This document shows, piece by piece, positions 12,201 to 25,583 of a stretch of DNA of 64,000 nucleotides. Position 1 is the first letter of the stretch. Every line of letters starts with the position of its first letter. Both the position numbers and the translations under genes were made by a program. This stretch comes from Candidatus Rariloculaceae bacterium (lineage in GTDB: Bacteria; Pseudomonadota; Gammaproteobacteria; Steroidobacterales; Rariloculaceae): positions 3,163,092 through 3,227,091 of the forward strand of contig OZ245000.1 in assembly GCA_965223375.1 (NCBI GenBank), in the 5' to 3' direction. Under the pieces are notes generated by a model. That model made no database searches, was not told where the DNA came from, and was given only the letters and a program-made list of their open reading frames with translations.

Positions 12201-12740
12201 TCAGATCCAGCCGAAGCCGCGAGCCATCACCGTCAGCATCATGCCGGCCAGCGTGACGTACATCCCGAATCCCCAAACACGGACGGCGTTGATCTCGTCG
12301 CTCAGGCCATCAAACTTGCCGGTGAGGGTTGCATTCAATTGGTCGATCTTTCCGTTGAGCCGCCCATCCAGCTCATCGACTTTCCCGTTGAGTCGCGCAT
12401 CCATAGCCTCGATCTTCCCGTTGAGCCTCCCATCCATGGCCTCGACCTTCTCGGTGAATCGCGCATCGATGGCCTGGACCTTCTCGGTGAATCGCGCATC
12501 CATGGCCTGGACCTTCTCGGTGACCCGTCTATCCATGCCATCTAGCTTCTCGGTGAACCGCGCGTCCAGCTTATCTATTCTCCCGTTTACCCGAATCTCC
12601 GCGTCGTCGAGCTTGTCGCGCATCGAGCGAAGGTCCGACTTGATGTCTGAAACGTCCGTTCGAATGTGAGAGACGTCAGCTTCGAGGCGCGCGATTCTGG
12701 CTTCCATGGGTTCGTCTACAGGCTTCGAGGGCGATTCCAT
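12201..12740 (-). CDS. Tail-anchored coiled-coil protein built from ~10 hendecad (11-aa) repeats
   Basis: Trimmed to MESPSKPVDEPMEARIARLE..., with RBS GGAGA 5 nt upstream. The repeats read DKLDARFTEKL / DGMDRRVTEKV / QAMDARFTEKV / QAIDARFTEKV / EAMDGRLNGKI / EAMDARLNGKV / DELDGRLNGKI / DQLNATLTGKF. The C-terminal TM segment is VWGFGMYVTLAGMMLTVMA. Confidence 0.7.
   Translation of the reverse strand: MESPSKPVDEPMEARIARLEADVSHIRTDVSDIKSDLRSMRDKLDDAEIRVNGRIDKLDARFTEKLDGMDRRVTEKVQAMDARFTEKVQAIDARFTEKVEAMDGRLNGKIEAMDARLNGKVDELDGRLNGKIDQLNATLTGKFDGLSDEINAVRVWGFGMYVTLAGMMLTVMARGFGWI
12279..12608 (-). repeat. 33-bp coding tandem repeat array (hendecad repeats)
   Basis: The DNA has 33-nt periodicity. 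For example, gcgcgattcaccgagaaggtccaggcc occurs twice, 33 nt apart, on the coding strand. Confidence 0.85.
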
Positions 12741-12948
12741 TCTATTCTCCGATGTCTTCGGTGAAACGCAGATCGTTTCGTAATCGAGGCATCGCGCAGA
12801 GCGCCAGACGAGAAAGGCCACCGTTTGGCGTGAAACATCGCGCGCAGTCGGGTCGAAGCGGCGTCTACGAGCTCGACAAGGGAGTATCTGCTATGCCCGC
12901 CGCCTGTAGTCTGCTCGATCGAACCGAGCAGGGACCGCCTAAGTCAGC

Positions 12949-13485
12949 TCAGCCAGCGCGGCCTTCCAGATACTCCGCGGCGTAGTCCACCAGCCGCCCT
13001 TCTTCCGGCATCCCGAGCTGGGTCGCTTCCTCGCGGGCCCGCTCCTGATCCCAGCCGTCGACGACAACCCGCTTCAGATACCACATCGTTGCAGCACGTC
13101 CGCCACCGGCGCAGTGAACGAATGCGGGCTCCACGCCCGGCTCCTGAATCACTTCGATGAAGCGATCGGCCACGCCCGGGTCGAGATCCTCGCCGCCGAA
13201 AGGCAGATGGAAGAAACGCACGCCGGCTTCCTCCGCGGCTTCTGCCTCGGCCTCGATGTTGGCGCCTTCTTCGCTCGAGCGGCGCAGGTTGATGATCGTC
13301 GTGAAGCCATAGTCCCTGATGCGCCCGACCGAATCCGGGGTGATGGCGCCTGCGCAGGCCACGGTCGTCTCGATGCGTGCGAAGTTCACGATGCCTTCGA
13401 CGTCCTCGCGCACGACCTGGGCCGTTGCACCGGTCGCGTGACTCAGAACGCCTGCAACCAGCACAGTCTTCAAAATCCTCGTCAT
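12949..13485 (-). CDS. Secreted Cys-based phosphatase-like protein (CX5R tyrosine/dual-specificity phosphatase fold)
   Basis: 178 aa. The signal peptide is MTRILKTVLVAGVLSHATGATAQ. The P-loop is VHCAGGGRA (C-x5-R). Confidence 0.7.
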   Translation of the reverse strand: MTRILKTVLVAGVLSHATGATAQVVREDVEGIVNFARIETTVACAGAITPDSVGRIRDYGFTTIINLRRSSEEGANIEAEAEAAEEAGVRFFHLPFGGEDLDPGVADRFIEVIQEPGVEPAFVHCAGGGRAATMWYLKRVVVDGWDQERAREEATQLGMPEEGRLVDYAAEYLEGRAG

Positions 13486-13744
13486 AGCTTCCGCTCCTGG
13501 CAGAGATGGTTATTGTCGATCGGGCGCCGGCCCATAAACCGACTTCCGAACCCGATCCATGTCGGACGGGGACCAGCATAGCATCGCGTGACCGGCATCG
13601 GCTGCCCGCCGATCGGCACGCATTGAGGGCCGCTTTACCTGCCCGGGTCGGTCGTCTCGCCGGGCTCCTGCAGGCGGCAGCAAGAGCCCGGTTTGTTAGA
13701 CTCGTCGCCAGAGACCTAATCCTGTGCCACGGAGGAAAACACCA

Positions 13745-14326
13745 ATGATCATGCGCATGTTCGCGACGGCCTTGTCCCTCCCCACGTTGTCTCTCGCCGC
13801 GATGCTCACGTGGCCCGTGTATTCGGTCGCGCAGGCGCCGATGACGCTGACGGCGCTCGATTACTTCGAAATTCAGCAGCTCATCGCGCGCTATGCTCGC
13901 GCGATCGATACCTGCTCGAACAACGGCTACGACTATGCCGACCTCTACACGCCGGACGGCATCTTCCAGCCGGTCATCAACGGCCGCGAGATCGCCCCGA
14001 TTCAGGGTCGCGAAGCGCTGGCCGAGGTCTCCGGCGGCGGCTCGAATAATTGCGTCAACGTCGGCTGGATCGAGCAGGGCGTGCACCATATCTACACGAA
14101 TCACATCATCGAGCCGTCGCCCGAGGGCGCGACCGGCACGGTCGAAATGCTGATGATCGGCCTCGGCGGTGACCCGAACAAGATCGAGCACGACGGCTAC
14201 TACGAAGACACCTACGTAAAGACCGACGACGGTTGGCGCTTCAAGCAGCGCACGCATCATGCCACCTACGATGCCTCGGTCCGCCCGGAGTCCGCACCGT
14301 ACGAGCAGAACGGCGACGAAGAATAG
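13745..14326 (+). CDS. Secreted SnoaL_4/NTF2-like protein
   Basis: Start moved to ATG 13745, with GGAGGA 8 nt upstream. The sequence MIMRMFATALSLPTLSLAAML...AQA is followed by LDYFEIQQLIARYARAIDT..., typical of SnoaL_4. Confidence 0.75.
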   Translation: MIMRMFATALSLPTLSLAAMLTWPVYSVAQAPMTLTALDYFEIQQLIARYARAIDTCSNNGYDYADLYTPDGIFQPVINGREIAPIQGREALAEVSGGGSNNCVNVGWIEQGVHHIYTNHIIEPSPEGATGTVEMLMIGLGGDPNKIEHDGYYEDTYVKTDDGWRFKQRTHHATYDASVRPESAPYEQNGDEE

Positions 14327-14345
14327 CCACGAGCAGGGAGAACCC

Positions 14346-14627
14346 ATGAAAGCGATCTGGCGCAACGAAATCATCGCCGAGAGCGACGCCACCGTCGTCG
14401 TCGAGAACAACCACTACTTTCCGCCGGCTTCGGTGGACAGGCGTTTTCTGCGCGAGAGCGACAACAGCACGCACTGCCCGTGGAAGGGCGATGCCAGCTA
14501 CTACGACATCGTCGTCGGGGATGAGGTCAACGGCGATGCCGCCTGGTACTACCCGGCACCGAAGGCCGCAGCGGAGCAGATTCGCGATTATGTCGCGTTC
14601 TGGCGGGGGGTCGACGTGACCGAGTGA
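14346..14627 (+). CDS. DUF427 domain protein
   Basis: Trimmed to MKAIWRNEIIAESD... (RBS GGGAGA). THCPWKGDASYYDIVV...AAWYYPAP...YVAFW matches the DUF427 signature as I recall it. Confidence 0.8.
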   Translation: MKAIWRNEIIAESDATVVVENNHYFPPASVDRRFLRESDNSTHCPWKGDASYYDIVVGDEVNGDAAWYYPAPKAAAEQIRDYVAFWRGVDVTE

Positions 14628-14703
14628 ATGGCGCGTGCAATCGGCGACCGTTTCGCTAGGATAGAGGTACGCAGGGAAGCCTCACGATAACAACCAACCG
14701 GGG

Positions 14704-16761
14704 GTGGATATGACGGTATCGGCACGGATTCACGCTGCGGACACCGTCCGCAACATCGCATTTCTGGGCAACGCCGGTTCCGGCAAGACGACGCTGATCG
14801 AGCAGTTGCTCAGCAACACCGGCATGATTCAGGCGGCCGGTACGGTCGAGTCCGGTACCACGGTAGGGGACTTTACCGATCAGGAAAAGGCGGTCGGTCA
14901 CTCACTCGACATTGCCGTCTGTCATTTCGAGCAAGACGGGAAGCTCGTCAATATCATCGATACACCCGGCTATGCCGACTTTATCGGGCGAAGCCTGGCC
15001 GTGCTGCCGGCCGTCGAGACTGCAGCGATCGTCATCGATGCCGCGCAGGGGGTCGAATTCGTTGCGGAGCAGGCGATGGCTGCCGCAGCGGACCGGCGGC
15101 TGTGCCGGCTCGTCATCATCAACAAGATCGACGCGCCCGGTGCCAACCCGGCAGCCGCGCTCGAAGGCGTCCGCGCCGCTTTCGGCGGCCAGTGCCTGCC
15201 GCTGAACCTGCCCGCAAGCGCCGGCCAGGCCGTGGCGGACTGCTTTTTCGAACCCGCCGACGTCGAGCCGGATTGCAGCTCGATAGAAGTCGCGCATGCG
15301 GAAATCACCGATCGAATCATCGAGCTCGACGATGAGCTGATGGAAGCCTACCTGGAGCAGGGCGAAACGATCTCGCTCGAGCAGCTGCACGATCCGTTCG
15401 AGCGCGCCCTCCGGCGCGGTCACCTGATCCCCGTATGCTTCACGTCGGCTGCAACGGGCGCGGGCCTGCGCCAGCTCGCGCGGATATTCACACAGCTGAT
15501 GCCGAATCCGTTCGAAGGCAATCCCGTTGACATGGTTACCACGGCCGGCAAACCGTTCCGCGTGGATCGCGATGGCGGCGATGGCCATTTCGTCGGCCAC
15601 GTGCTGAAGCTCAACATCGATCCGTATGTCGGCAGGCTCGCTACGGTCCGCGTCCATCAGGGCAAGCTCCGGACCGGCGACCAGATCTACGTCGGCGAGA
15701 AGCGTAAGCCGGTGCGCATCGCCCATCTTTATCGCGTCCAGGGCAAGGACACGGGCGAGATCTCGGCCGCATCGGCCGGCGAGCTCTGTGCCATCGGCAA
15801 GATTGATGGCATCGAGTACAACGACGTGCTGCACTCGAGTCACGACGAGGACGGTCTGCGGATGGCCGACTCGCATCTGCCGGAGCCCGTGTACGGCCTC
15901 GCGCTCGAGATGCCTCAGCGCGGTCAGGAGAAAAAGCTGTCTGATGCGCTGCACAAGCTGGTGGCCGAGGATCCGAGCCTGCGCGTCGATCACGACGCGG
16001 ACGCGAACGAGACCGTATTGCGCGGCCTCGGTGACATGCACCTGCGTCTCACGCTCGAGCGGCTCGGCGAAGAGTTCGGCGTCGAAGTCACTACCCGGAT
16101 ACCGAGTGTGCCCTACCGCGAAACGATCACGCGAGCGGCCGACGGCCACTGCCGCCACAAGAAGCAGACCGGCGGCGCCGGACAGTTCGGCGAAGTGTTT
16201 CTGAAAGTGGAGCCGTTGGAGCGTGGCTCCGGGTTCGAATTCGTCAATCAGGTCGTCGGCGGCAGCATCCCCGGCCAGTTCATTCCGGCCGTTGAAAAGG
16301 GCGTTCGGCAGGTTCTGCACGACGGCGCTGTCACCGGCCATCCGATCGAGGACGTGCGGGTCATCGTCTATGACGGCAAGCATCACCCGGTCGACTCCAA
16401 GGAAGTGGCTTTCGTCGCGGCCGGGCGCAAGGCGTTCCTGGATGCCGTGAGTCATGCGAGCCCGGTGGTTCTGGAGCCGATTGCACAGGTCGAGATCACC
16501 GTACCCAACGCATTCGTCGGCGACATCACCGGGCATCTCGCCGGAATTCGCGGTCGCATTGCCGGCACGGAGGCAACCCGCACCGGTAAAGCGCGGATTC
16601 TCGCGCAGGTACCGATCGCCGAGCTCGGCGAGTTTCAGACCTCGCTGAAATCGCTGACCGGCGGCGAAGGGAGCTTCACGCTGAAGCTCGACCATTACGA
16701 ATCGGCACCACCGGCGATCCAGCAATCGCTGGAGGCGGAACATCGCGCGCGTTCGCACTGA
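14704..16761 (+). CDS. Elongation factor G paralogue (EF-G-like translational GTPase)
   Basis: 685 aa. G motifs are GNAGSGKTT, DTPGYADF and NKID. Full five-domain length. It is not in an rpsL-rpsG-fusA-tuf context. Confidence 0.85.
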   Translation: MDMTVSARIHAADTVRNIAFLGNAGSGKTTLIEQLLSNTGMIQAAGTVESGTTVGDFTDQEKAVGHSLDIAVCHFEQDGKLVNIIDTPGYADFIGRSLAVLPAVETAAIVIDAAQGVEFVAEQAMAAAADRRLCRLVIINKIDAPGANPAAALEGVRAAFGGQCLPLNLPASAGQAVADCFFEPADVEPDCSSIEVAHAEITDRIIELDDELMEAYLEQGETISLEQLHDPFERALRRGHLIPVCFTSAATGAGLRQLARIFTQLMPNPFEGNPVDMVTTAGKPFRVDRDGGDGHFVGHVLKLNIDPYVGRLATVRVHQGKLRTGDQIYVGEKRKPVRIAHLYRVQGKDTGEISAASAGELCAIGKIDGIEYNDVLHSSHDEDGLRMADSHLPEPVYGLALEMPQRGQEKKLSDALHKLVAEDPSLRVDHDADANETVLRGLGDMHLRLTLERLGEEFGVEVTTRIPSVPYRETITRAADGHCRHKKQTGGAGQFGEVFLKVEPLERGSGFEFVNQVVGGSIPGQFIPAVEKGVRQVLHDGAVTGHPIEDVRVIVYDGKHHPVDSKEVAFVAAGRKAFLDAVSHASPVVLEPIAQVEITVPNAFVGDITGHLAGIRGRIAGTEATRTGKARILAQVPIAELGEFQTSLKSLTGGEGSFTLKLDHYESAPPAIQQSLEAEHRARSH

Positions 16762-16782
16762 TCACCTGATCCCCGGAGAACC

Positions 16783-18753
16783 ATGAATCATCGCTTACCT
16801 GTCGCGGCCCTCGCCGCAGGCCTGCTGCTGACCGGCCAGTCCCTTCGCGAGGCCCATGCTCAAGCGAGCCCATGGGATTCGTTGACTTCCGACGAGATCG
16901 CCGTCGCTGCCGCCGCCGTTCAGGGCGAGGTCGGCGGGCCCGTCATCTTCAACGAGCTCAAGCTGCAGCGGCCGGACAAGACGGCGGCGCTCGCGTGGCG
17001 CCCCGGCGGGGATATCGGTCCGCGTCGGGCCGATGTCGTCTTTCTGTTCGAGAACGTCGCCTATGAAGGCCTCGTCGACCTCGCAACCGGCGATGTCACG
17101 CTCACAGCGCTGGCCGACGATGTGCAGCCGATGCTGTCGATCGAGGGCGAGTTCGTGCCGACGATGCCGATCATCCGCGAGCATCCGGACGTCATCGCAG
17201 GGCTCGGCCGCCGTGGTCTGGCACCGGAAGACGTCACCTGCGGTCCGCTCTCCGTCGGGCGATTCCCGGGCGACGTGGACGGCACGCGGCGACTGGTCAA
17301 GCTGATGTGCCTGAAGATCAGCGGCAAGTCCCGTAACGCGTTCTCGCAACCGGTCGAAGGGCTCGTGCCGGTGGTCGACCTCGAGGCGCGTGAAGTCGTC
17401 GAGGTCATCGATCTCGCGGCGGGCAGTGAGCCGATACCGGTTCCCGAGCTCACTCACGACTTCGACGCGGCGGCGATTCCCGTTCGTGCCGCTCTGAATC
17501 CGGTGCGGCAGGATCTGCAGGGCGACCCGAACTACGATCGTGACGGCTCGCATGTCAGCTGGCAGAACTGGGATTTTCGCTTCGGCTTCGATCCCCGGCA
17601 GGGCGTGATTCTCCATGACGTAGGCTTCCGCGACGGCGACCGGCGGCGGCGTGTGATCTACGAAATCGCGATGTCCGAGATGTTCGTGCCCTACCAGGAT
17701 CCGACACCGGCCTGGTACTACCGCACCTACTTCGACATGGGCGAATACGGCTTCGGGAACTCGTCCACCGAGCTGCTTGGCGCCGACTGCCCTGACCATG
17801 CCGAGTTCATCGACGTCACGCTCGCGAGCGTCGCCGGCGAGCCTGTCCGGGTGCCGCGCCGCATGTGCCTCTTCGAGCGCGATCCGTCGCGCCCGGTCTG
17901 GCGTCACAGCGAGTTCATCCTGCCGGCCCACGAGTCGCGGCCGGCCACGCAGCTGGTCGTTCGCATGGCAGCAACGATCGGCAACTACGATTACTTTCAG
18001 GATTACGTGCTGAGCCAGGACGGGCGATTTCGGGTCGAGCTGATCGCGACCGGCATCGACGCCGTCAAGGCGGTGAGCGCCGCAACGAAGGCCGACGCCG
18101 CACCGGGGGAGCTCGACTACGGCACGTTGATCGCTCCCTATCTGCTCGGCGTCAATCACGACCACTTCTTCAGCTACCGAGTCGATCTCGATGTCGACGG
18201 CACGGCAAACGACTTCGTGCGGATGCGTCTGGTGCCGCAGGGCACTGCGGGTTCGTCGCCGCGCACCGGGTACTGGCGCGTCGAACCGGAAACCGTCGCG
18301 AGCGAGCTCGCGGCAAGAACCCGTGTCGACGTCGATCGGCCGGCGGCCCTGCTGGTCCGCAACACGTCTTCGACGAACGCGATGGGCGAGCCCGCTGCGT
18401 TCCAGATCATTAATGAGAGTGTCGCGCGGCCGCTGGTCGACCCGGAGGATCCGGCGTACCAGCGCGGCGCGTTCACCCGCTATGACCTATGGGTGACGCC
18501 GTACGCGGCGGGTGAGCTGTTCGCTTCCGGTCGGCATATCAATCAGGGCCGCGGCGGCATGGGCCTGCCGGAGTGGACGTCGGCGGACCGCGCGCTCCGT
18601 GGTGCCGACCTGGTTGCCTGGGTCACGCTCGGTTTTCACCACGTCCCGATGGCCGAGGACTGGCCGGTCATGCCCGCCAAAGTGGATGCATTCGAGCTTA
18701 AGCCGCGCAACTTCTTCGATCGCAACCCGGCTATCGACGTGCCGTCCCGCTAG
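16783..18753 (+). CDS. Copper-containing primary amine oxidase (topaquinone enzyme), exported
   Basis: 656 aa with a signal peptide. TIGNYDY is the TPQ precursor motif (N-Y-D/E). VNHDHFF (HxH) and GFHHVP supply Cu ligands. Confidence 0.9.
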   Translation: MNHRLPVAALAAGLLLTGQSLREAHAQASPWDSLTSDEIAVAAAAVQGEVGGPVIFNELKLQRPDKTAALAWRPGGDIGPRRADVVFLFENVAYEGLVDLATGDVTLTALADDVQPMLSIEGEFVPTMPIIREHPDVIAGLGRRGLAPEDVTCGPLSVGRFPGDVDGTRRLVKLMCLKISGKSRNAFSQPVEGLVPVVDLEAREVVEVIDLAAGSEPIPVPELTHDFDAAAIPVRAALNPVRQDLQGDPNYDRDGSHVSWQNWDFRFGFDPRQGVILHDVGFRDGDRRRRVIYEIAMSEMFVPYQDPTPAWYYRTYFDMGEYGFGNSSTELLGADCPDHAEFIDVTLASVAGEPVRVPRRMCLFERDPSRPVWRHSEFILPAHESRPATQLVVRMAATIGNYDYFQDYVLSQDGRFRVELIATGIDAVKAVSAATKADAAPGELDYGTLIAPYLLGVNHDHFFSYRVDLDVDGTANDFVRMRLVPQGTAGSSPRTGYWRVEPETVASELAARTRVDVDRPAALLVRNTSSTNAMGEPAAFQIINESVARPLVDPEDPAYQRGAFTRYDLWVTPYAAGELFASGRHINQGRGGMGLPEWTSADRALRGADLVAWVTLGFHHVPMAEDWPVMPAKVDAFELKPRNFFDRNPAIDVPSR

Positions 18754-18825
18754 CGGGACGCGGGGGCTGCTGTTGTGCGCGGACGGCTCGACTGATGCAG
18801 GCCTCTGCCCGCTTGAGCTACTCGG

Positions 18826-19854
18826 CTACTTTTCCCGACTGATTCGTGCCATAGCAGTCGCAACGGCGGACTCGGCCATCGCTGTCCGATAGCCCTCATT
18901 GATGAGGCGCTGGATGGCTTCGCTCTTCGAGTATGTCTTGAGCAGCCGCTCGGCCTCCGATTCGGCGGCCGGTAAGCTTTTTAGAATGCTGCCGAGCCTG
19001 CTGTCTGGCTTTCTGCGCCTGACGAAATCGTCGAGTAGACGCGGCCCGCTTTCGCTCATGTTTACGAGACGGGACAGGCGTATCACCTTGGGATGACCCG
19101 CCGGCTGATCCCTGAGTTTCACGTGTGCCTGCGCAAGGCAAAAACCGTTGGCAAGCTCCTTGAGTTCGAATAGCCTTTCAGCCGGCCCCCCTTTCTGGAT
19201 TCGATGCTCTTCCGGGTAGCCCGGAAGGTGGTACTCCACGGAGTCGATTCGGGCCGTGGCGGAGTGATGCCCAAAGACGATGAGATGAATGCGGTACGGC
19301 ATGTTTCCGAACCGCGTATTCCGGTCGACGCGCCAGCAGCTGTGGATCAGGTGCAGGTGGCTGGGTGTCACTGGTTCTCCGTCAGCCACCTTGTCGAGAC
19401 TCCCTTGCATTTCGATGCTGCCGATCCGGGATTCAATGGCCTGTCTGAGCTGATCGAGACCGGTCGTCCCCCGGTCGGCGACCCACTCCTCGATCGACAG
19501 AGCCTGGGCTTCTCGAAACAGCCTCGGCGGTCCCGCATCGTCGATGCATACAGGCAAATACACGTCTCTCTCGAAAGCGGCGGCTGCTTCGCCCTGAACC
19601 CACAAAGACTTCCGCGACGTTCGGGACCACAAGACGAGCACGCAGCGAGCGCTTTCCAGCCGGCGTTGTAATTCGCTGCTCCATGCGGCGCCGGCTTCGA
19701 TCTTCCGATCCCAGAAGATTTCCCAGCCGTCTTCCTCATGCAGCCGTGCGGCGAGGTCGGCTGCGATCTCCCTGTCGTTCCTTGCGTAGCTGATGAAAAT
19801 ATCGGTCACTCTGAGAGTATGTACCTCACGAGCCCTGCGTCGACAAGTTGGCAA
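18826..19854 (-). CDS. TIR-domain protein with a central beta-rich YEATS-like (pYEATS-type) domain and a helical tail
   Basis: DIFISYARNDREIAADLAARL...CVLVLWSRTSRKSLWVQGEAAAAF is a bacterial TIR core with the conserved Glu (E89 of the track ORF). Residues ~165-265 (YRIHLIVFGHH...IDSVEYHLPGYPEE...) resemble the prokaryotic YEATS-like module often fused to TIR. The start is uncertain (ATG 19854 or GTG at VTDIF). Confidence 0.75.
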   Translation of the reverse strand: MPTCRRRAREVHTLRVTDIFISYARNDREIAADLAARLHEEDGWEIFWDRKIEAGAAWSSELQRRLESARCVLVLWSRTSRKSLWVQGEAAAAFERDVYLPVCIDDAGPPRLFREAQALSIEEWVADRGTTGLDQLRQAIESRIGSIEMQGSLDKVADGEPVTPSHLHLIHSCWRVDRNTRFGNMPYRIHLIVFGHHSATARIDSVEYHLPGYPEEHRIQKGGPAERLFELKELANGFCLAQAHVKLRDQPAGHPKVIRLSRLVNMSESGPRLLDDFVRRRKPDSRLGSILKSLPAAESEAERLLKTYSKSEAIQRLINEGYRTAMAESAVATAMARISREK

Positions 19855-19953
19855 CGAAGAGAACGTCGCTTGCCATCTTCCTAAGCCTCTGGAAATCGTA
19901 TAACGTCGGGATCGACGTTGCCCTTTTACACCAGAGCCGCGGGGGAATTAACC

Positions 19954-22875
19954 ATGGCGATCCAAGCGGGGCGTGTCTCATCGCGCAGGTCTTTTGCTTC
20001 CCTGAGCATTCTTTCGGCAGCGGTTGCTGCCGCCCTCTCAGCACCGGGTGTCGCTTTGGCCCAGGCGCAAACCGAGGAAGTCATCGTTACCGGTTCGCGC
20101 GTTTCGCGTAGTGGTTTCGATACCCCTCAACCGGTAACGGCAATCGGCGCCGAGCAGATAGAGAGTCTCGGCCTCGTCAACGTCGGCGATATCGCCCGCA
20201 CGATGCCGCAGAATACGCCGTTCTTCGCTGAGACGAACGTCGGCGTCGGCAACTTCAATGTCGGCGCACAGCTCGCGAATCTTCGCGGCCTGAATCCCTT
20301 CTTTGGCACGCGCACGCTGACGCTGGTCGATACGAAGCGTGTCGTGCCGAACTCCGAGGGCAGTGCGGTCGATCTGACGCTGATTCCGTCGATGCTCGTC
20401 GAGCGAATGGAAGTCGTGACCGGCGGCGCCTCGGCCGCCTACGGGTCGGACGCCATCGCCGGTGTCGTCAACGTCATCCTCGACAAGGACCTCGACGGTT
20501 TCCGTGCCCAGGTCGACATGGGCCAGACTACCGAGAGCGACGGCGACGATCTGCACGCTTCCTTCGGCTTCGGCATGCCCTTCGGCGACGGCGACCGCGG
20601 GCACTTCCTGATCGGCGCCGAGTTTCAGAATCAGGACGCCATCGGACCCTGCGTCTCGAACCGTTCGTGGTGCGCCGAGTCGTGGGCCATTCATACGAAC
20701 GGCGCCTTCGCGACCGGCAACGGCCTGCCGAATTTCGTAGTGGCCCCGGATTCCAAGCTGCCCACGACCGAGACCGGGCTCTTTACGCCTTTCGGTGGCG
20801 CCACCCAGCAGTTCACGGCCGATGGCCAGGACCTGATGCCGTACGATCCCGGGCAGTTCTCCGGCTTCTTCACGCGCCTCGGCGGTGACGGCAGCCTCTC
20901 ATCCTACAGCCTGTCGAACATCCGGCCGGAAATCGAGCGGCACACGGTCATGGCCCGTATCAGCTATGACGTCACGAGTTCGCTCAACTATTTCGCCGAG
21001 CTCTACAGCGCGGCCAGCGATTCGGTCGGCGATCCCGCCAATGGTGCGCTTGGGCCCTTTGTCGGCATCATCGCGCCGGATAACGCGTTCCTTTCGCCGG
21101 CCGTACGGGCGGTCGCGCCGGGCGGCGGCATCTTCAGCCGTAACTACGCGCCGAACCTGTTCTCGGCACGCAATACGACCGAGAACGACACGCTGCGCTT
21201 CGTCACTGGCCTCGAGGGTGATATCGGCGCGAACTGGAGCTGGGACGGCTATTACCAGTACGGCGAGAACGAGAACCACCAGCGGCTGTTTCACAACATG
21301 GTCGGTGCGTTCGTGCCGGTGCCGGTAACGTACAACTTCCTCGGCTGGGCAATCGATTCCGTCGTCGACCCGAACGATCCAAACAATATCGTCTGCCGCG
21401 CGACGATTCCGGGCGACCCGGCATTCAATCCACTCGCCGCGGGGTGTGTGCCGCTGAATCTGTTCGGCGCCGTGCGGCCCGACCAGGCCGCCATCGATTA
21501 CGTCTATCGGACGCTCAAGGAAGACACGGACTACGAGCAGAACGTCATCGGCGCGAATTTTCGCGGTGACCTTGCCGAAGGCTGGGCCGGCCCGATCCGT
21601 GGTGCATTCGGCATCGAGTACCGGCAGGACGAGTATCTCGCGACGCACGATATGGCCAACCAGCCCTGGTACAACGACTATCTGCTTTCCTGGGGTCTCG
21701 ACCGCGGCGGCAAGATCGAAGCGACCGAAGCCTACGGGGAGATCCAGGTACCGATGGCGGAGAACTTCCAGGCGGACTTCGCGGTTCGTTCGACATCGAC
21801 CGATGCGACGAGTGCAACGCAGGCGGGTGTCGGCGCGAGCCGCAGCTTCGAGAGCTGGAAGGCGGCGGGTATATACGATCCGCTCGACTGGTTGCGCTTC
21901 CGCGCCACGCGGTCGCGCGATATCCGCGCGGGCAACTTCCGTGAACTTTTCCTGCCGCGTGATACGGCGCAGGCCGCTCCCGGAGGCTTCCCGGGGCCGA
22001 TCACGAATCCATGGAACAACGGCATCGAGGAGGGTTACACGAGCATCACCGGCGGGAATCCGGGTCTCAAGCCTGAGACTGCCGATACCACGACTTTCGG
22101 CGCCGTCTTGTCGTTCGACCGCCTGCGCCTCTCGCTCGACTGGTTCGAGATTGACATGACTGACGCGATCACGCCGGGCGGTCTCGGCGGCGTCAGCGCC
22201 CAGAACCTGGTCGATGCCTGCTTCCGTGGCGGGGCAAAGGCCTGCGAGTTCGTTCAGGGCTTCGGCACCGACGACATTACCGCGGTCGAGGCGGGCTCCA
22301 TCAACATCGGCCAGTTCCTGACCCGAGGCATCGACATCGAGGCCGTCTACGACGTGGCGATGAGCAACGGTGGCAGCCTCAACCTTCGGGTGATCGGATC
22401 CTATCTCTATGATCTGATCGTCGACACGGGGCTCGGCGACCCGCCGATCAACTATGAAGGGCAGAGCGGACCGGTCGGTTCCTTCGGCGGCTTCAACACC
22501 TCACCGAACTGGCAGGCCACGGCGTGGCTGACATACTCGCGCGACCGTTTTCGCACGACGCTCGAGACTCGCTACATCGGCTCCGGTTCGCTGAACGCCA
22601 CTCGCTTCGACAGCCCGGCCGGCGCATCGACGAACACGCTGCTCAACTCGATGACGACCAATACCGTCGAGGATCGCTACTACCTTGCTTGGTCGGGTTC
22701 GTATGACTTCGAGTTCGGCGGCGGCGGTACCGATATGCAGTTCTTCTGGGCCGTGACGAACCTGCTCGACGAAGATCCCCCGGTCGCACCCGGCGGAAAC
22801 GTGTACCCGACCAATCCCGTGTTCTTCGACACGATCGGGCGCCGGTACAGGGTCGGACTGCGATTTTCGTTCTGA
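19954..22875 (+). CDS. TonB-dependent receptor
   Basis: Start at ATG 19954 (RBS ggggg). The signal peptide ends ALAQAQ and the plug begins TEEVIVTGSR. The beta-barrel ends with the terminal motif RVGLRFSF. Confidence 0.95.
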   Translation: MAIQAGRVSSRRSFASLSILSAAVAAALSAPGVALAQAQTEEVIVTGSRVSRSGFDTPQPVTAIGAEQIESLGLVNVGDIARTMPQNTPFFAETNVGVGNFNVGAQLANLRGLNPFFGTRTLTLVDTKRVVPNSEGSAVDLTLIPSMLVERMEVVTGGASAAYGSDAIAGVVNVILDKDLDGFRAQVDMGQTTESDGDDLHASFGFGMPFGDGDRGHFLIGAEFQNQDAIGPCVSNRSWCAESWAIHTNGAFATGNGLPNFVVAPDSKLPTTETGLFTPFGGATQQFTADGQDLMPYDPGQFSGFFTRLGGDGSLSSYSLSNIRPEIERHTVMARISYDVTSSLNYFAELYSAASDSVGDPANGALGPFVGIIAPDNAFLSPAVRAVAPGGGIFSRNYAPNLFSARNTTENDTLRFVTGLEGDIGANWSWDGYYQYGENENHQRLFHNMVGAFVPVPVTYNFLGWAIDSVVDPNDPNNIVCRATIPGDPAFNPLAAGCVPLNLFGAVRPDQAAIDYVYRTLKEDTDYEQNVIGANFRGDLAEGWAGPIRGAFGIEYRQDEYLATHDMANQPWYNDYLLSWGLDRGGKIEATEAYGEIQVPMAENFQADFAVRSTSTDATSATQAGVGASRSFESWKAAGIYDPLDWLRFRATRSRDIRAGNFRELFLPRDTAQAAPGGFPGPITNPWNNGIEEGYTSITGGNPGLKPETADTTTFGAVLSFDRLRLSLDWFEIDMTDAITPGGLGGVSAQNLVDACFRGGAKACEFVQGFGTDDITAVEAGSINIGQFLTRGIDIEAVYDVAMSNGGSLNLRVIGSYLYDLIVDTGLGDPPINYEGQSGPVGSFGGFNTSPNWQATAWLTYSRDRFRTTLETRYIGSGSLNATRFDSPAGASTNTLLNSMTTNTVEDRYYLAWSGSYDFEFGGGGTDMQFFWAVTNLLDEDPPVAPGGNVYPTNPVFFDTIGRRYRVGLRFSF

Positions 22876-23006
22876 CCGCCTGACGGGCTCGGCCGGCCAG
22901 TCAGCAGAGACGTCCGATCGTCCCTACCGTCTGCCTGGGCGGGTCATTCAGGATCCCCCGGGGCTTCCGGCCCGCAGGCGCCTCCTCAGGCGCTTCCGGG
23001 AGCGAG

Positions 23007-23612
23007 CTATGGCAGAGGGGGCAGACCCAGGTGCCGCCGGATTGCCGGCCGGACCGAGTTGACGTTGTAGACGATCAGGTCCTGCAGGCGATCGATGCCT
23101 TCGTCCTGATCCTGGACTTCGTCGTCGAGCCAGACGGCACCCGCCGAAATCAGCACGGCGCCTTCATCGCTGATCGTGTAGATCGCCATATGGACAACTG
23201 CAAGCAGGTCATCGGCATCCGAGTCACTGACTTCGCGGGCAAACTCACGGATGCGGGCGAACGTGTTCGGTTCGATCGACGCGCGGACGGATTCTATCGA
23301 TGATCCCCGACCGATTGCCGACGGTCGCAGCATCAGCACGGCCTGAACTCCCTGTTCGACGAGCTCGTGACGGAACTCGACGTCGTCGAGATCGCGCACA
23401 TCGGGTTCAATGTCGAAGCTCGTGACCGCGTCGTAGTTGTTTTCGCGCGCCCGGGTGACGAGCCGGGTCTCGAAGTCGGCGCGTAGCACCGGATCGTCGG
23501 TCAGCGCGACGACGGCAGCCTTGTAGCGTACGACCGGCTGGTCAGCCTGTTGCGCGAATACAATCGGCAGGCCGCCGCCTAGCAGAATCAGGGCCAAGCA
23601 AGATTTGCGCAT
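23007..23612 (-). CDS. Hypothetical secreted protein
   Basis: 201 aa. The signal peptide is MRKSCLALILLGGGLPIVFAQQ. I recognise no family. Confidence 0.6.
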   Translation of the reverse strand: MRKSCLALILLGGGLPIVFAQQADQPVVRYKAAVVALTDDPVLRADFETRLVTRARENNYDAVTSFDIEPDVRDLDDVEFRHELVEQGVQAVLMLRPSAIGRGSSIESVRASIEPNTFARIREFAREVSDSDADDLLAVVHMAIYTISDEGAVLISAGAVWLDDEVQDQDEGIDRLQDLIVYNVNSVRPAIRRHLGLPPLP

Positions 23613-23780
23613 TGGTGTTTCCCGGCCGCGGATCTCGATCGATCATACCATCGGGCTCGTAATCTCGTTCCTGCGCCGTTGTTCTGGGACGCACCAGCTG
23701 CGTTGCCAAGGCGGACGATGCACAGTAGTGTCGCGAGTCATCAGGCGGTGAGGTACCGAATCCGGAGGAGGACGAGCTTG

Positions 23781-24590
23781 ATGACTCAGCGAATCTTCAG
23801 GTTCAGTGGGCCGTTGCCGGTGGTCCCGCTGATGCTGCTGCTGATTGCCTGCGGGCCGGCGCCGGATCCGACGACAACATCCGCTACGGAGCCGGCCGAA
23901 CCGCAGCAGGAAGTCCGGTCGATACCCGATTTCTCCGGCGTTTGGATGGCGTTCACCGTCGAGAATCCGGATGGCGACGGCACGGCACCGGTCTATTCCA
24001 CGGAAGGCGAAGCGACGCTCGACGCTTTCGTCGCACAGTTCAACGAGATTCCCGAGCCCGGCGGTAACTGTGTCGGTACGGGGCTGCCCGGCGTCATGCT
24101 CTCGACCGTGTCCTATCCGATCGAAATGGCGCAGACCGAATCCCGGATCCTGATGGTCGCGGAGCTCGAGCATCAGATTCGTCGCATTTTCCTCGACGGA
24201 CGCGATCACCCGAGCGACACGTTTCCATCGAACGTCGGCCACTCGGTCGGTACCTGGGACGGCGATACGCTGGTTGTCGACACGACGCTGCTCGAGCCAT
24301 GGGAACTTCGGCCCTGGCCGCGCGGCGACAATGCCCACGTCGTCGAGCGCATGTATCTGACCACGTTCGACGAGATCGCTGCTCGCCCGACCGGCTTTGT
24401 CGCGGAACTCGACGTCGCGGTCGGAAATTCTGTGCTGGTCATCGATATCACGCTGACCGACGCCGACTACTACGATAGCCCGCAGCGACGTATCGCTTAC
24501 TACCAGCGTGTTCCGGACAGCGCGACTGCCGAATACGGCTGCAGCAACGGACTGTGGCGCGACCTGCTCGACGACGAACGCATCGACTGA
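23781..24590 (+). CDS. Lipoprotein consisting of the stand-alone C-module (GHSxGxW[ED]GDTLVVDT family)
   Basis: Trimmed to MTQRIFRFSGPLPVVPLMLLLIAC (lipobox LIAC, RBS GGAGGAGGA). It carries GHSVGTWDGDTLVVDT, AHVVERMYL and the C-terminal EYGCSNG, shared with seven other genes in the window. Confidence 0.75.
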   Translation: MTQRIFRFSGPLPVVPLMLLLIACGPAPDPTTTSATEPAEPQQEVRSIPDFSGVWMAFTVENPDGDGTAPVYSTEGEATLDAFVAQFNEIPEPGGNCVGTGLPGVMLSTVSYPIEMAQTESRILMVAELEHQIRRIFLDGRDHPSDTFPSNVGHSVGTWDGDTLVVDTTLLEPWELRPWPRGDNAHVVERMYLTTFDEIAARPTGFVAELDVAVGNSVLVIDITLTDADYYDSPQRRIAYYQRVPDSATAEYGCSNGLWRDLLDDERID

Positions 24591-24704
24591 GCCGGCATCA
24601 CGCAGCTGATGGCACGACGGCCCGGCCGTACTCGCCTTGACACGTCCAGGAGCGACATCGATAGTCCCCGGGGTATCCGCTGACGTCCGATCGGGAGAAC
24701 AACG

Positions 24705-25583
24705 ATGAGAACCGGACCCGCTCCTCGCTCGCTACTCGCCGCCGCCGCATTCGCCGCCTTGTCGATTGCCGTGACGCCGGCACGAGCCCAGCTCATGGCG
24801 ACCGGCGCCGTGACGAACGGTCACCATCATCTGAACGTCAGCGATGTCGCCGCACACCAGGCCTTCTGGATCGATACTCTGGGCGGCAGCCCCGGTATGT
24901 TTGCGGGCCGCACGCCGATCGCGATGTTCCCTGATGCGCTCGTGTTTTTGCGCGAGCAGGCACCGACCGGTGGCTCGATCGGCACCATCGTGGATCACGT
25001 CGGATTTTCCGTGCCGAATCTGCGTGAGATGCTCGACCGCGTCATTGCCGCCGGCTACGAAGTGGCCACCGAAGCCGGGTCGCCTCCCGATGCGGAGATC
25101 GTCGATGGCATTCGTGTCGTGCCTGGGAATGGGCCGGTTTCTGGCATCGCCTACATACTCGGCCCGGACGAAGTGAAGGTCGAGCTGCTCGAGATGCGCG
25201 CGCAGGCGGCGCCGATCGTGAGCCACCATATCCACTTCTTCGGCGACGAAGCCGATGAGATGCGGCAGTGGTATGCGGACGTTTTCGGTGCCGAGATGCA
25301 GTCGGGCGGCGGCGCGGGCTTCGTCACCGCGACACTACCGGGTCTGTCGATGAATTACACTCGCACTGAATCCGCGACCGACGCAACGGCCGGGACGGTC
25401 ATCGATCACATCGGTTTCGAGATCGACGGGCTGGAAGCGTTCATTGCCGGGCTCGAAGCCAAAGGCATCACGCTCGACGTGCCATACCGGGAAATTCCGA
25501 ACGCGGGCCTCGCGATCGCGTTCCTGACTGATCCCTGGGGCACCTACATCGAGCTGACCGAGGGACTCGACGAGCTCCGCTGA
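24705..25583 (+). CDS. Exported two-domain VOC (glyoxalase/extradiol dioxygenase-like) protein
   Basis: 292 aa with a signal peptide ending ARAQ. It has two repeats of the VOC pattern (HHHLNVSD..., VDHVGFSVPN..., SHHIHFFG..., IDHIGFEID). Confidence 0.8.
   Translation: MRTGPAPRSLLAAAAFAALSIAVTPARAQLMATGAVTNGHHHLNVSDVAAHQAFWIDTLGGSPGMFAGRTPIAMFPDALVFLREQAPTGGSIGTIVDHVGFSVPNLREMLDRVIAAGYEVATEAGSPPDAEIVDGIRVVPGNGPVSGIAYILGPDEVKVELLEMRAQAAPIVSHHIHFFGDEADEMRQWYADVFGAEMQSGGGAGFVTATLPGLSMNYTRTESATDATAGTVIDHIGFEIDGLEAFIAGLEAKGITLDVPYREIPNAGLAIAFLTDPWGTYIELTEGLDELR

Follow-up and report, generated by a model that had tools for sequence, protein, structure and literature searches.

A TIR–pYEATS protein of a Rariloculaceae bacterium as a candidate one-protein antiviral switch

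The TIR–pYEATS gene and its domains

The window analysed here is a stretch of 64,000 nucleotides of contig OZ245000.1 (positions 3,163,092 to 3,227,091; GenBank assembly GCA_965223375.1) from a Candidatus Rariloculaceae bacterium. On its minus strand, at 18826-19809, lies a gene for a protein of 327 amino acids (aa) that combines an N-terminal TIR domain, a prokaryotic YEATS-like domain (pYEATS) and a helical C-terminal tail. The initial annotation, made from the DNA sequence alone, had given the open reading frame (ORF) as 18826-19854; this minus-strand ORF is indeed present in the ORF list of the window, but its start has to be moved. As the database gene call (P0001) is 327 aa long and M-T-D-I-F-I-S-Y is the N-terminus of nearly all homologues, the true start is most likely the GTG at 19809 and not the TTG at 19854, with the TAG stop at 18826-18828 and the reading frame checked. 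The in-frame upstream extension to the TTG (19810-19854, minus strand; 45 nt or 15 codons) falls outside both the database call and the homologue N-termini, and is probably 5' untranslated, non-coding sequence.

The TIR domain comprises residues 1-130 (19420-19809, minus strand), and its presence, proposed in the initial annotation, is borne out by family, fold and profile matches. Pfam TIR_2 (PF13676) matches residues 4-112 with an E-value (E) of about 7e-22 (~78.6-78.8 bits versus a cutoff of 28), the alignment spanning positions 1-112 of the 122 in the model. In an AlphaFold2 (AF2) model of the full protein, built with 41 relatives and having a mean predicted local distance difference test score (pLDDT) of 84.6, the region folds into alternating strands and helices with a pLDDT of 85-93 across most of residues 1-130. 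Foldseek superposes this N-terminal part on the TIR domains of MAL, AbTir, MyD88 and BtpA, with template modelling (TM) scores of 0.61-0.72 on the target. A phmmer search of the PDB with the TIR region alone gave no match at E 0.01, a gap bridged by the broader family profile A1, which reached the TIR domains of AbTir, RPP1, RUN1 and SARM1 at E 1e-5 to 1e-4.

The glutamate previously numbered E89 and assigned to the catalytic position for cleavage of nicotinamide adenine dinucleotide (NAD+) corresponds to E74 (codon GAA, 19588-19590, minus strand), the predicted catalytic residue of a W70-x-x-x-E74 motif. Both W70 and E74 are kept in 40/40 aligned relatives having a TIR domain, and in the profile alignment E74 falls on the Glu of the RPP1 motif 'WCLDEL' and on that of the bacterial TIR 7uxr, 'NWTEYEL'. 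Given this conservation and alignment, the NADase catalytic position is intact, in keeping with the earlier assignment, and NAD+ cleavage itself is predicted.

The middle of the protein, residues 140-262 (19024-19392, minus strand), is a beta-sandwich that the initial annotation had likened to YEATS domains. Comparison of sequence profiles and of the predicted fold confirms it as a divergent prokaryotic YEATS domain, and the assignment holds because three lines of evidence agree: pYEATS matches among the relatives, profile matches to solved YEATS structures, and the fold itself. Pfam pYEATS (PF20305) is matched individually by 15 of 41 close relatives (best E 3.2e-9). Searched against 1.84 billion representative proteins, the domain profile collected 192 clusters (50% identity) at E up to 0.001; among the 97 longer matches, 90 carry pYEATS (best E 1.5e-34) and 25 also match PF03366, the YEATS family of eukaryotic type (best E 2.1e-18). 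A broadened profile including the window protein (A7) matched YEATS2 (6.8e-6), AF9 (5.3e-5) and Yaf9 (9.4e-5) in the PDB and, more weakly, ENL (1e-3) and GAS41 (5e-3), the top 38 matches being YEATS proteins throughout; a narrow profile of the middle domain plus tail (A2) found no YEATS structure there. The predicted structure, with a pLDDT of about 88-95 over residues 141-250, was matched by Foldseek to AF9 and ENL (E 4.7e-5 to 3e-4, TM ~0.52 on the target) with a root-mean-square deviation (rmsd) of ~3.3 Å over ~102 columns. The window protein belongs to a divergent pYEATS subfamily marked by the motifs HLHLxHSCW and ELANGF. The former is a nearly invariant His-rich first strand, with residues 151-156 at 19342-19359 and its end, W159, at 19333-19335 (minus strand). 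This strand and an invariant G180-H181 pair are specific to the subfamily, and might constitute a metal or ligand site.

The pocket with which eukaryotic YEATS domains read their ligands was located in the window domain by aligning it to YEATS2 and AF9 through the profile (hmmalign), with column counts over the 41 relatives; AF9 residues are numbered as in the literature, and the motif contexts HESFP and SGYAGF stand in the alignment. Loop L195-P-G-Y198-P199 (19213-19227, minus strand) is equivalent to the AF9 reader loop H56-E-S-F59-P60, and loop L219-A-N221-G-F-C224 (19138-19155, minus strand) to S-G77-Y78-A-G-F81. Conservation within the bacterial domain is highest in these two loops, with Y198, P199, L219, A220 and G222 invariant. 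AF9 F59 is replaced by Y198 (41/41), followed by the invariant proline, and S58 by G197. The cage aromatic Y78 is replaced by N221, an Asn in 35/41 relatives and often a Trp or Tyr in the wider pYEATS family, and F81 by C224, in a column of Ser, Cys or Thr. Judged from this alignment, a ligand-binding site is likely to exist at the same place as the eukaryotic pocket. It would be premature to take acetyl- or crotonyl-lysine for its ligand, since Y78 is Asn and F81 is Cys or Ser here.

The C-terminal tail, residues 266-327 (18829-19014, minus strand), was modelled on its own as 62 residues and gave a pLDDT of 85.8, with helices at 14-25, 30-39 and 44-61 in tail numbering; the separate helical unit noticed in the initial annotation is thus predicted to consist of three helices. 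Pfam searches of the tail up to E 10 gave nothing beyond noise, and no named fold could be assigned: the best Foldseek match in the PDB had an E of 2.1 (ribosomal protein and PEX14 helices), and the unit was kept as a generic three-helix bundle. The tail is present in 18/41 aligned relatives. Members of the wider pYEATS family stop exactly where the domain does, and the close family exists in two forms, of ~270 aa without and ~325 aa with the tail. The tail-less form is genuine rather than a truncation artefact, as one example is encoded on a 6.2-Mb chromosome. By its distribution over the aligned sequences, the tail is taken to be an add-on specific to one subclade.

Surroundings, composition and distribution

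The gene is, as initially described, the only minus-strand gene between plus-strand neighbours. On one side, at 14704-18753, lie genes for a paralogue of elongation factor G (EF-G) and a copper amine oxidase, and the other flank is occupied by a TonB-dependent receptor gene (19918-22875). The EF-G paralogue (14704-16761, plus strand) has all five EF-G domains and is placed directly upstream of the amine oxidase with no ribosomal-protein operon around it.

With a GC content of 0.599 and a GC content at third codon positions (GC3) of 0.707, the gene lies about 2 standard deviations (SD) below the averages of 45 likely window genes (GC 0.646, SD 0.024; GC3 0.781, SD 0.037). The composition dip is real, yet modest, and three other window genes have comparable GC3 values (0.687, 0.692 and 0.708). 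Of the flanking genes, that of the amine oxidase has a GC content of 0.664 and that of the TonB-dependent receptor 0.633. The lowest GC among the window genes, 0.576, was found for a 206-aa ORF at 12201-12821 (minus strand), which gave weak PADLOC matches (E 1e-6 to 1e-3) to the coiled-coil parts of LeoA, LeoBC, LmuB, ZorA and JetC, and is probably a mere coiled-coil protein.

Full-length relatives of the protein are few: 6 were found among 185,579 species (one genome each), with 50-64% identity, in Saprospiraceae, Chitinophagales, Chitinophagaceae, Acidobacteriota, Bryobacterales and Planctomycetota, i.e. in the phyla Bacteroidota, Acidobacteriota and Planctomycetota. The neighbouring copper amine oxidase is 72% identical to that of a Pseudomonadales metagenome-assembled genome, in keeping with a gammaproteobacterial origin of the window. 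The gene lacks a conserved syntenic position, as no TIR gene was found beside the orthologous amine oxidase (70-72% identity) on four contigs. The entire downstream neighbourhood differs on these contigs, and they therefore show non-conservation and not a clean insertion; in the nearest relatives, whose copies of the adjacent amine oxidase are 70-77% identical, the neighbourhood is rearranged. The patchy spread across phyla and the 2-SD composition shift make horizontal acquisition plausible. The later acquisition proposed in the initial annotation is supported to this extent, but the locus showed neither a clean insertion site nor the scar of a mobile element.

The initial annotation had also noted the lack of an adjacent ThsA, STING or other known partner gene. 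When 44 genes of the window were scanned with Pfam and PADLOC models, no ThsA, SIR2, SLOG, Macro, STING or cyclic oligonucleotide-based antiphage signalling system (CBASS) component came to light, and there is no Argonaute in the window. Furthermore, an all-against-all comparison of the ORFs within 6 kb of the gene at ten independent loci found no gene family common to any two, even at E 1e-3, while the TIR genes themselves, serving as positive control, matched one another at about 1e-100. With no neighbour family common among the ten loci, the gene is a true singleton, and acts alone or with unlinked partners.

Two of the homologous loci deserve mention in their own right. In one (L085, 5952-8978, plus strand), three TIR genes follow each other on the same strand, annotated as CAP12-PCTIR_TIR, TIR_2 and, last, the TIR–pYEATS homologue P0010; the three proteins show no relationship in their C-terminal regions, and the locus resembles a small TIR array in which the sensors have diversified. 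In the other (L082/L083, 8001-12971), homologue P0040 is convergent with a gene for a 1312-aa KAP-family nucleoside triphosphatase (NTPase). As KAP NTPases also occur fused to pYEATS (8/97), this neighbour hints at a functional link between KAP and pYEATS modules. The conflict-system flavour that these two loci lend is circumstantial.

A candidate sensor–effector and its rivals

The domain content suggests a self-contained sensor–effector of the bacterial conflict (anti-phage) type, in which a TIR NADase is coupled to a C-terminal YEATS-type sensor, a reading to which we give an even chance. The protein would be cytoplasmic, with the N-terminal TIR domain as the effector, cleaving NAD+ once TIR domains self-associate, and the C-terminal pYEATS domain as a sensory or regulatory module that keeps the TIR domain inactive until a trigger is bound. 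The trigger would most likely be a feature of an invader protein, either a peptide or a modified residue, and would dock where the two invariant loops form a pocket equivalent to the eukaryotic reader pocket. Its binding would lead to oligomerisation and NAD+ depletion, in effect abortive infection, and the three-helix tail of the subclade may provide a further surface for docking or oligomerisation. The immune role is a prediction at this stage, as are the cleavage of NAD+, the kind of trigger and the assembly into oligomers, and the gene is best described as a well-supported candidate for a one-protein antiviral switch.

The main support comes from the company that the sensor domain keeps, together with the domain content of the protein itself. 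The pYEATS module is rare, as seen from the 192 clusters mentioned above, and almost always C-terminal, and the N-terminal partners among the 97 longer matches are TIR (32), KAP NTPase (8), DUF4062 (3) and STAND-type ATPases (3-4). It thus sits behind interchangeable conflict-type modules, which argues for a sensor–effector arrangement, and the absence of any neighbour common to the ten independent loci fits a single-gene system. The patchy distribution, the low GC3 and the lack of the gene beside the orthologous amine oxidase of relatives also count in favour of this reading. DUF4062 has been reported as the TIR-like NADase of a single-protein defence system activated by the phage portal, in a preprint according to which TIR proteins need accessory domains both to sense and to become active (10.64898/2026.05.01.722283).

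Several observations weigh against this reading. The window neighbours are metabolic and transport genes and do not form a defence island, and the PADLOC models match the TIR part alone. The window protein itself matches Pfam pYEATS below the cutoff (E 0.011, 16.0 bits versus 26.9; model positions 1-62 of 73), and a search of the accessible literature found no paper on the prokaryotic YEATS domain. The acyl-lysine aromatic sandwich, formed in AF9 by F59, Y78 and F81 with the Ser and His of the reader loop, is only half present. TIR domains sometimes serve as signal generators or mere scaffolds. A mobile-element origin was considered and rejected, given that neither the phage collection nor the viral contigs contained relatives, that plasmids yielded one weak TIR-only match and nothing more, and that no tRNAs were found and flanking repeats were at chance level only.

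Among the alternatives, a Thoeris-like signal generator would use its TIR domain to produce a messenger of the cyclic adenosine diphosphate ribose type, or another NAD-derived one, after sensing by pYEATS, with the effector encoded elsewhere. Defence signalling pairs are almost always co-encoded, and the lack of ThsA, SIR2-SLOG, Macro or any other effector near the gene in the window, or recurring in the ten loci, makes this an unlikely explanation. It draws some support from weak ThsB-type matches (PF08937, E 1.7e-4; PADLOC ThsB1, 2.4e-5; NCBIfam Thoeris type III ThcB4, 5e-8, far under cutoff), and from two reports in which ThsB proteins are infection sensors and phage capsid is the trigger of staphylococcal Thoeris (PMC11204291, PMC12578639). 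Standalone TIRs were left out of a systematic survey of TIR signalling, together with the TIRs that it regarded as NAD-depleting effectors (10.64898/2025.12.03.692087), and this again speaks against a signal generator.

The protein could also act outside immunity, either as a housekeeping or stress regulator, for instance one that couples NAD+ turnover to protein acylation or to the metabolic state, or as a non-catalytic scaffold. Eukaryotic YEATS domains read acyl-lysine and lysine acylation is widespread in bacteria; such a role would be in line with this, with the metabolic and transport gene surroundings free of mobile-element marks, and with the strong conservation (50-80% identity) across distant phyla. 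The rare and patchy occurrence of the family, with 6 full-length members in the species genomes searched, is difficult to reconcile with it, as are the absence of the gene from the orthologous neighbourhoods of relatives and the lack of any conserved neighbour among the ten loci. The fusion partners of pYEATS are moreover of conflict type and not metabolic, and the acyl-lysine cage is incomplete; on balance, we consider a non-immune role rather improbable. The incomplete cage equally disfavours an effector directed against the cells of eukaryotic grazers or hosts, like the secreted BtpA/TcpB. Acylated histones or other eukaryotic proteins would then be the targets of the YEATS domain, and the TIR domain would deplete NAD+ or block Toll-like receptor signalling. 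The fold does resemble the BtpA and TcpB TIRs, and the YEATS domain has homologues among the chromatin readers of eukaryotes. Direct reading of the N-terminus, with no predictor used, showed no evident signal peptide or secretion-system signal, there are no secretion genes nearby, and the host lineages are free-living ones of soil and water, all of which makes such an effector very improbable.

The preferred reading, a TIR NADase governed by its own C-terminal sensor, has a more specific form, in which the bacterial YEATS domain genuinely reads a post-translationally modified or otherwise distinctive peptide, for example one of a phage protein or of an infection-altered host protein, and switches on the TIR NADase directly. 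We hold this stronger claim to be doubtful. If true, it would represent the first prokaryotic reader-domain-gated immune effector and point to a conflict-system origin of the YEATS fold of eukaryotic chromatin readers, and the three-helix tail of the subclade would add a new module for docking or oligomerisation. Even the more general model, if correct, would make this compact 327-aa protein a tractable case of how a small sensor domain gates a TIR NADase, and would bear on what YEATS domains did before they read histone acylation in eukaryotes. As the family is rare, strongly conserved and without partner genes, a single gene can be cloned directly as the target.

Comparison with known systems and further genes of the window

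A TIR domain fused to a putative sensor is not surprising in itself. The TIR–pYEATS architecture is already defined in Pfam, as a computationally predicted kind, where PF20305 proteins with an N-terminal TIR_2 show the same domain order; the window protein differs from them in scoring under the gathering cutoff (16 versus 26.9 bits) and in its extra ~60-aa tail, absent from the wider family. The tail-bearing subclade is a minor variant of this architecture. The pYEATS family as a whole appears to be experimentally untouched, as the literature search found no paper describing or assaying it.

Similar to the eukaryotic YEATS domains of AF9, ENL, YEATS2, GAS41, Yaf9 and Taf14, which are histone readers of acetyl- and crotonyl-lysine, the window domain is a homologous Ig-like beta-sandwich in which the F59 loop is kept as Y198-P199. 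It differs from these in having Asn and Cys/Ser in place of the cage aromatics Y78 and F81, in its bacterial host, devoid of chromatin context, and in being fused to an enzyme, whereas the eukaryotic domains are fused to transcription-complex modules. SARM1 and NADase TIRs of the AbTir type share the fold and the W-x-x-x-E context with the window TIR domain, but identity is only 12-21%, and their regulatory domains are ARM/SAM (SARM1) and a coiled coil (AbTir).

ThsB of Thoeris is likewise a bacterial TIR protein with a catalytic Glu; it is believed to be an infection sensor in its own right, and is weakly matched at the level of models. In contrast to Thoeris, neither the window gene nor any of its homologues has a linked ThsA-type effector. 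Membership of the ThsB/ThcB families was rejected, as ThcB4 scored 32 bits against a cutoff of 220 and the PADLOC ThsB matches (E 2.4e-5 or weaker) cover the TIR core only. SPARTA (TIR-APAZ with a short prokaryotic Argonaute) was rejected as well: its structures were the top Foldseek matches with an rmsd of 28-31 Å, the TIR part alone superposing, and the window is free of Argonaute genes. The proposed logic is that of DSR2 (SIR2 plus a tail-tube sensor), with an N-terminal NAD+-destroying domain and C-terminal sensing on one polypeptide and no partner gene. It is shared with Swarozyc, reported as a phage-portal-activated protein with a DUF4062 TIR-like NADase (10.64898/2026.05.01.722283). DUF4062–pYEATS fusions account for 3/97 of the longer matches. 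Compared with DSR2 and Swarozyc, the window protein has a YEATS sensor fold and a canonical TIR effector, and its trigger and phenotype are predicted.

Elsewhere in the window, outside 12201-25583 and not among the ten genes nearest to the TIR gene, one gene matches the PADLOC candidate model PDC-M72A (E 6.2e-46) and another, likewise outside that interval and that set of ten, encodes an ankyrin-repeat protein (PADLOC Ankyrin, E 3.8e-29). The window also contains four DUF6152 genes, two tannase/feruloyl-esterase genes and one DUF1552/DUF1588/DUF1592 set, an unusual local concentration of paralogous families.

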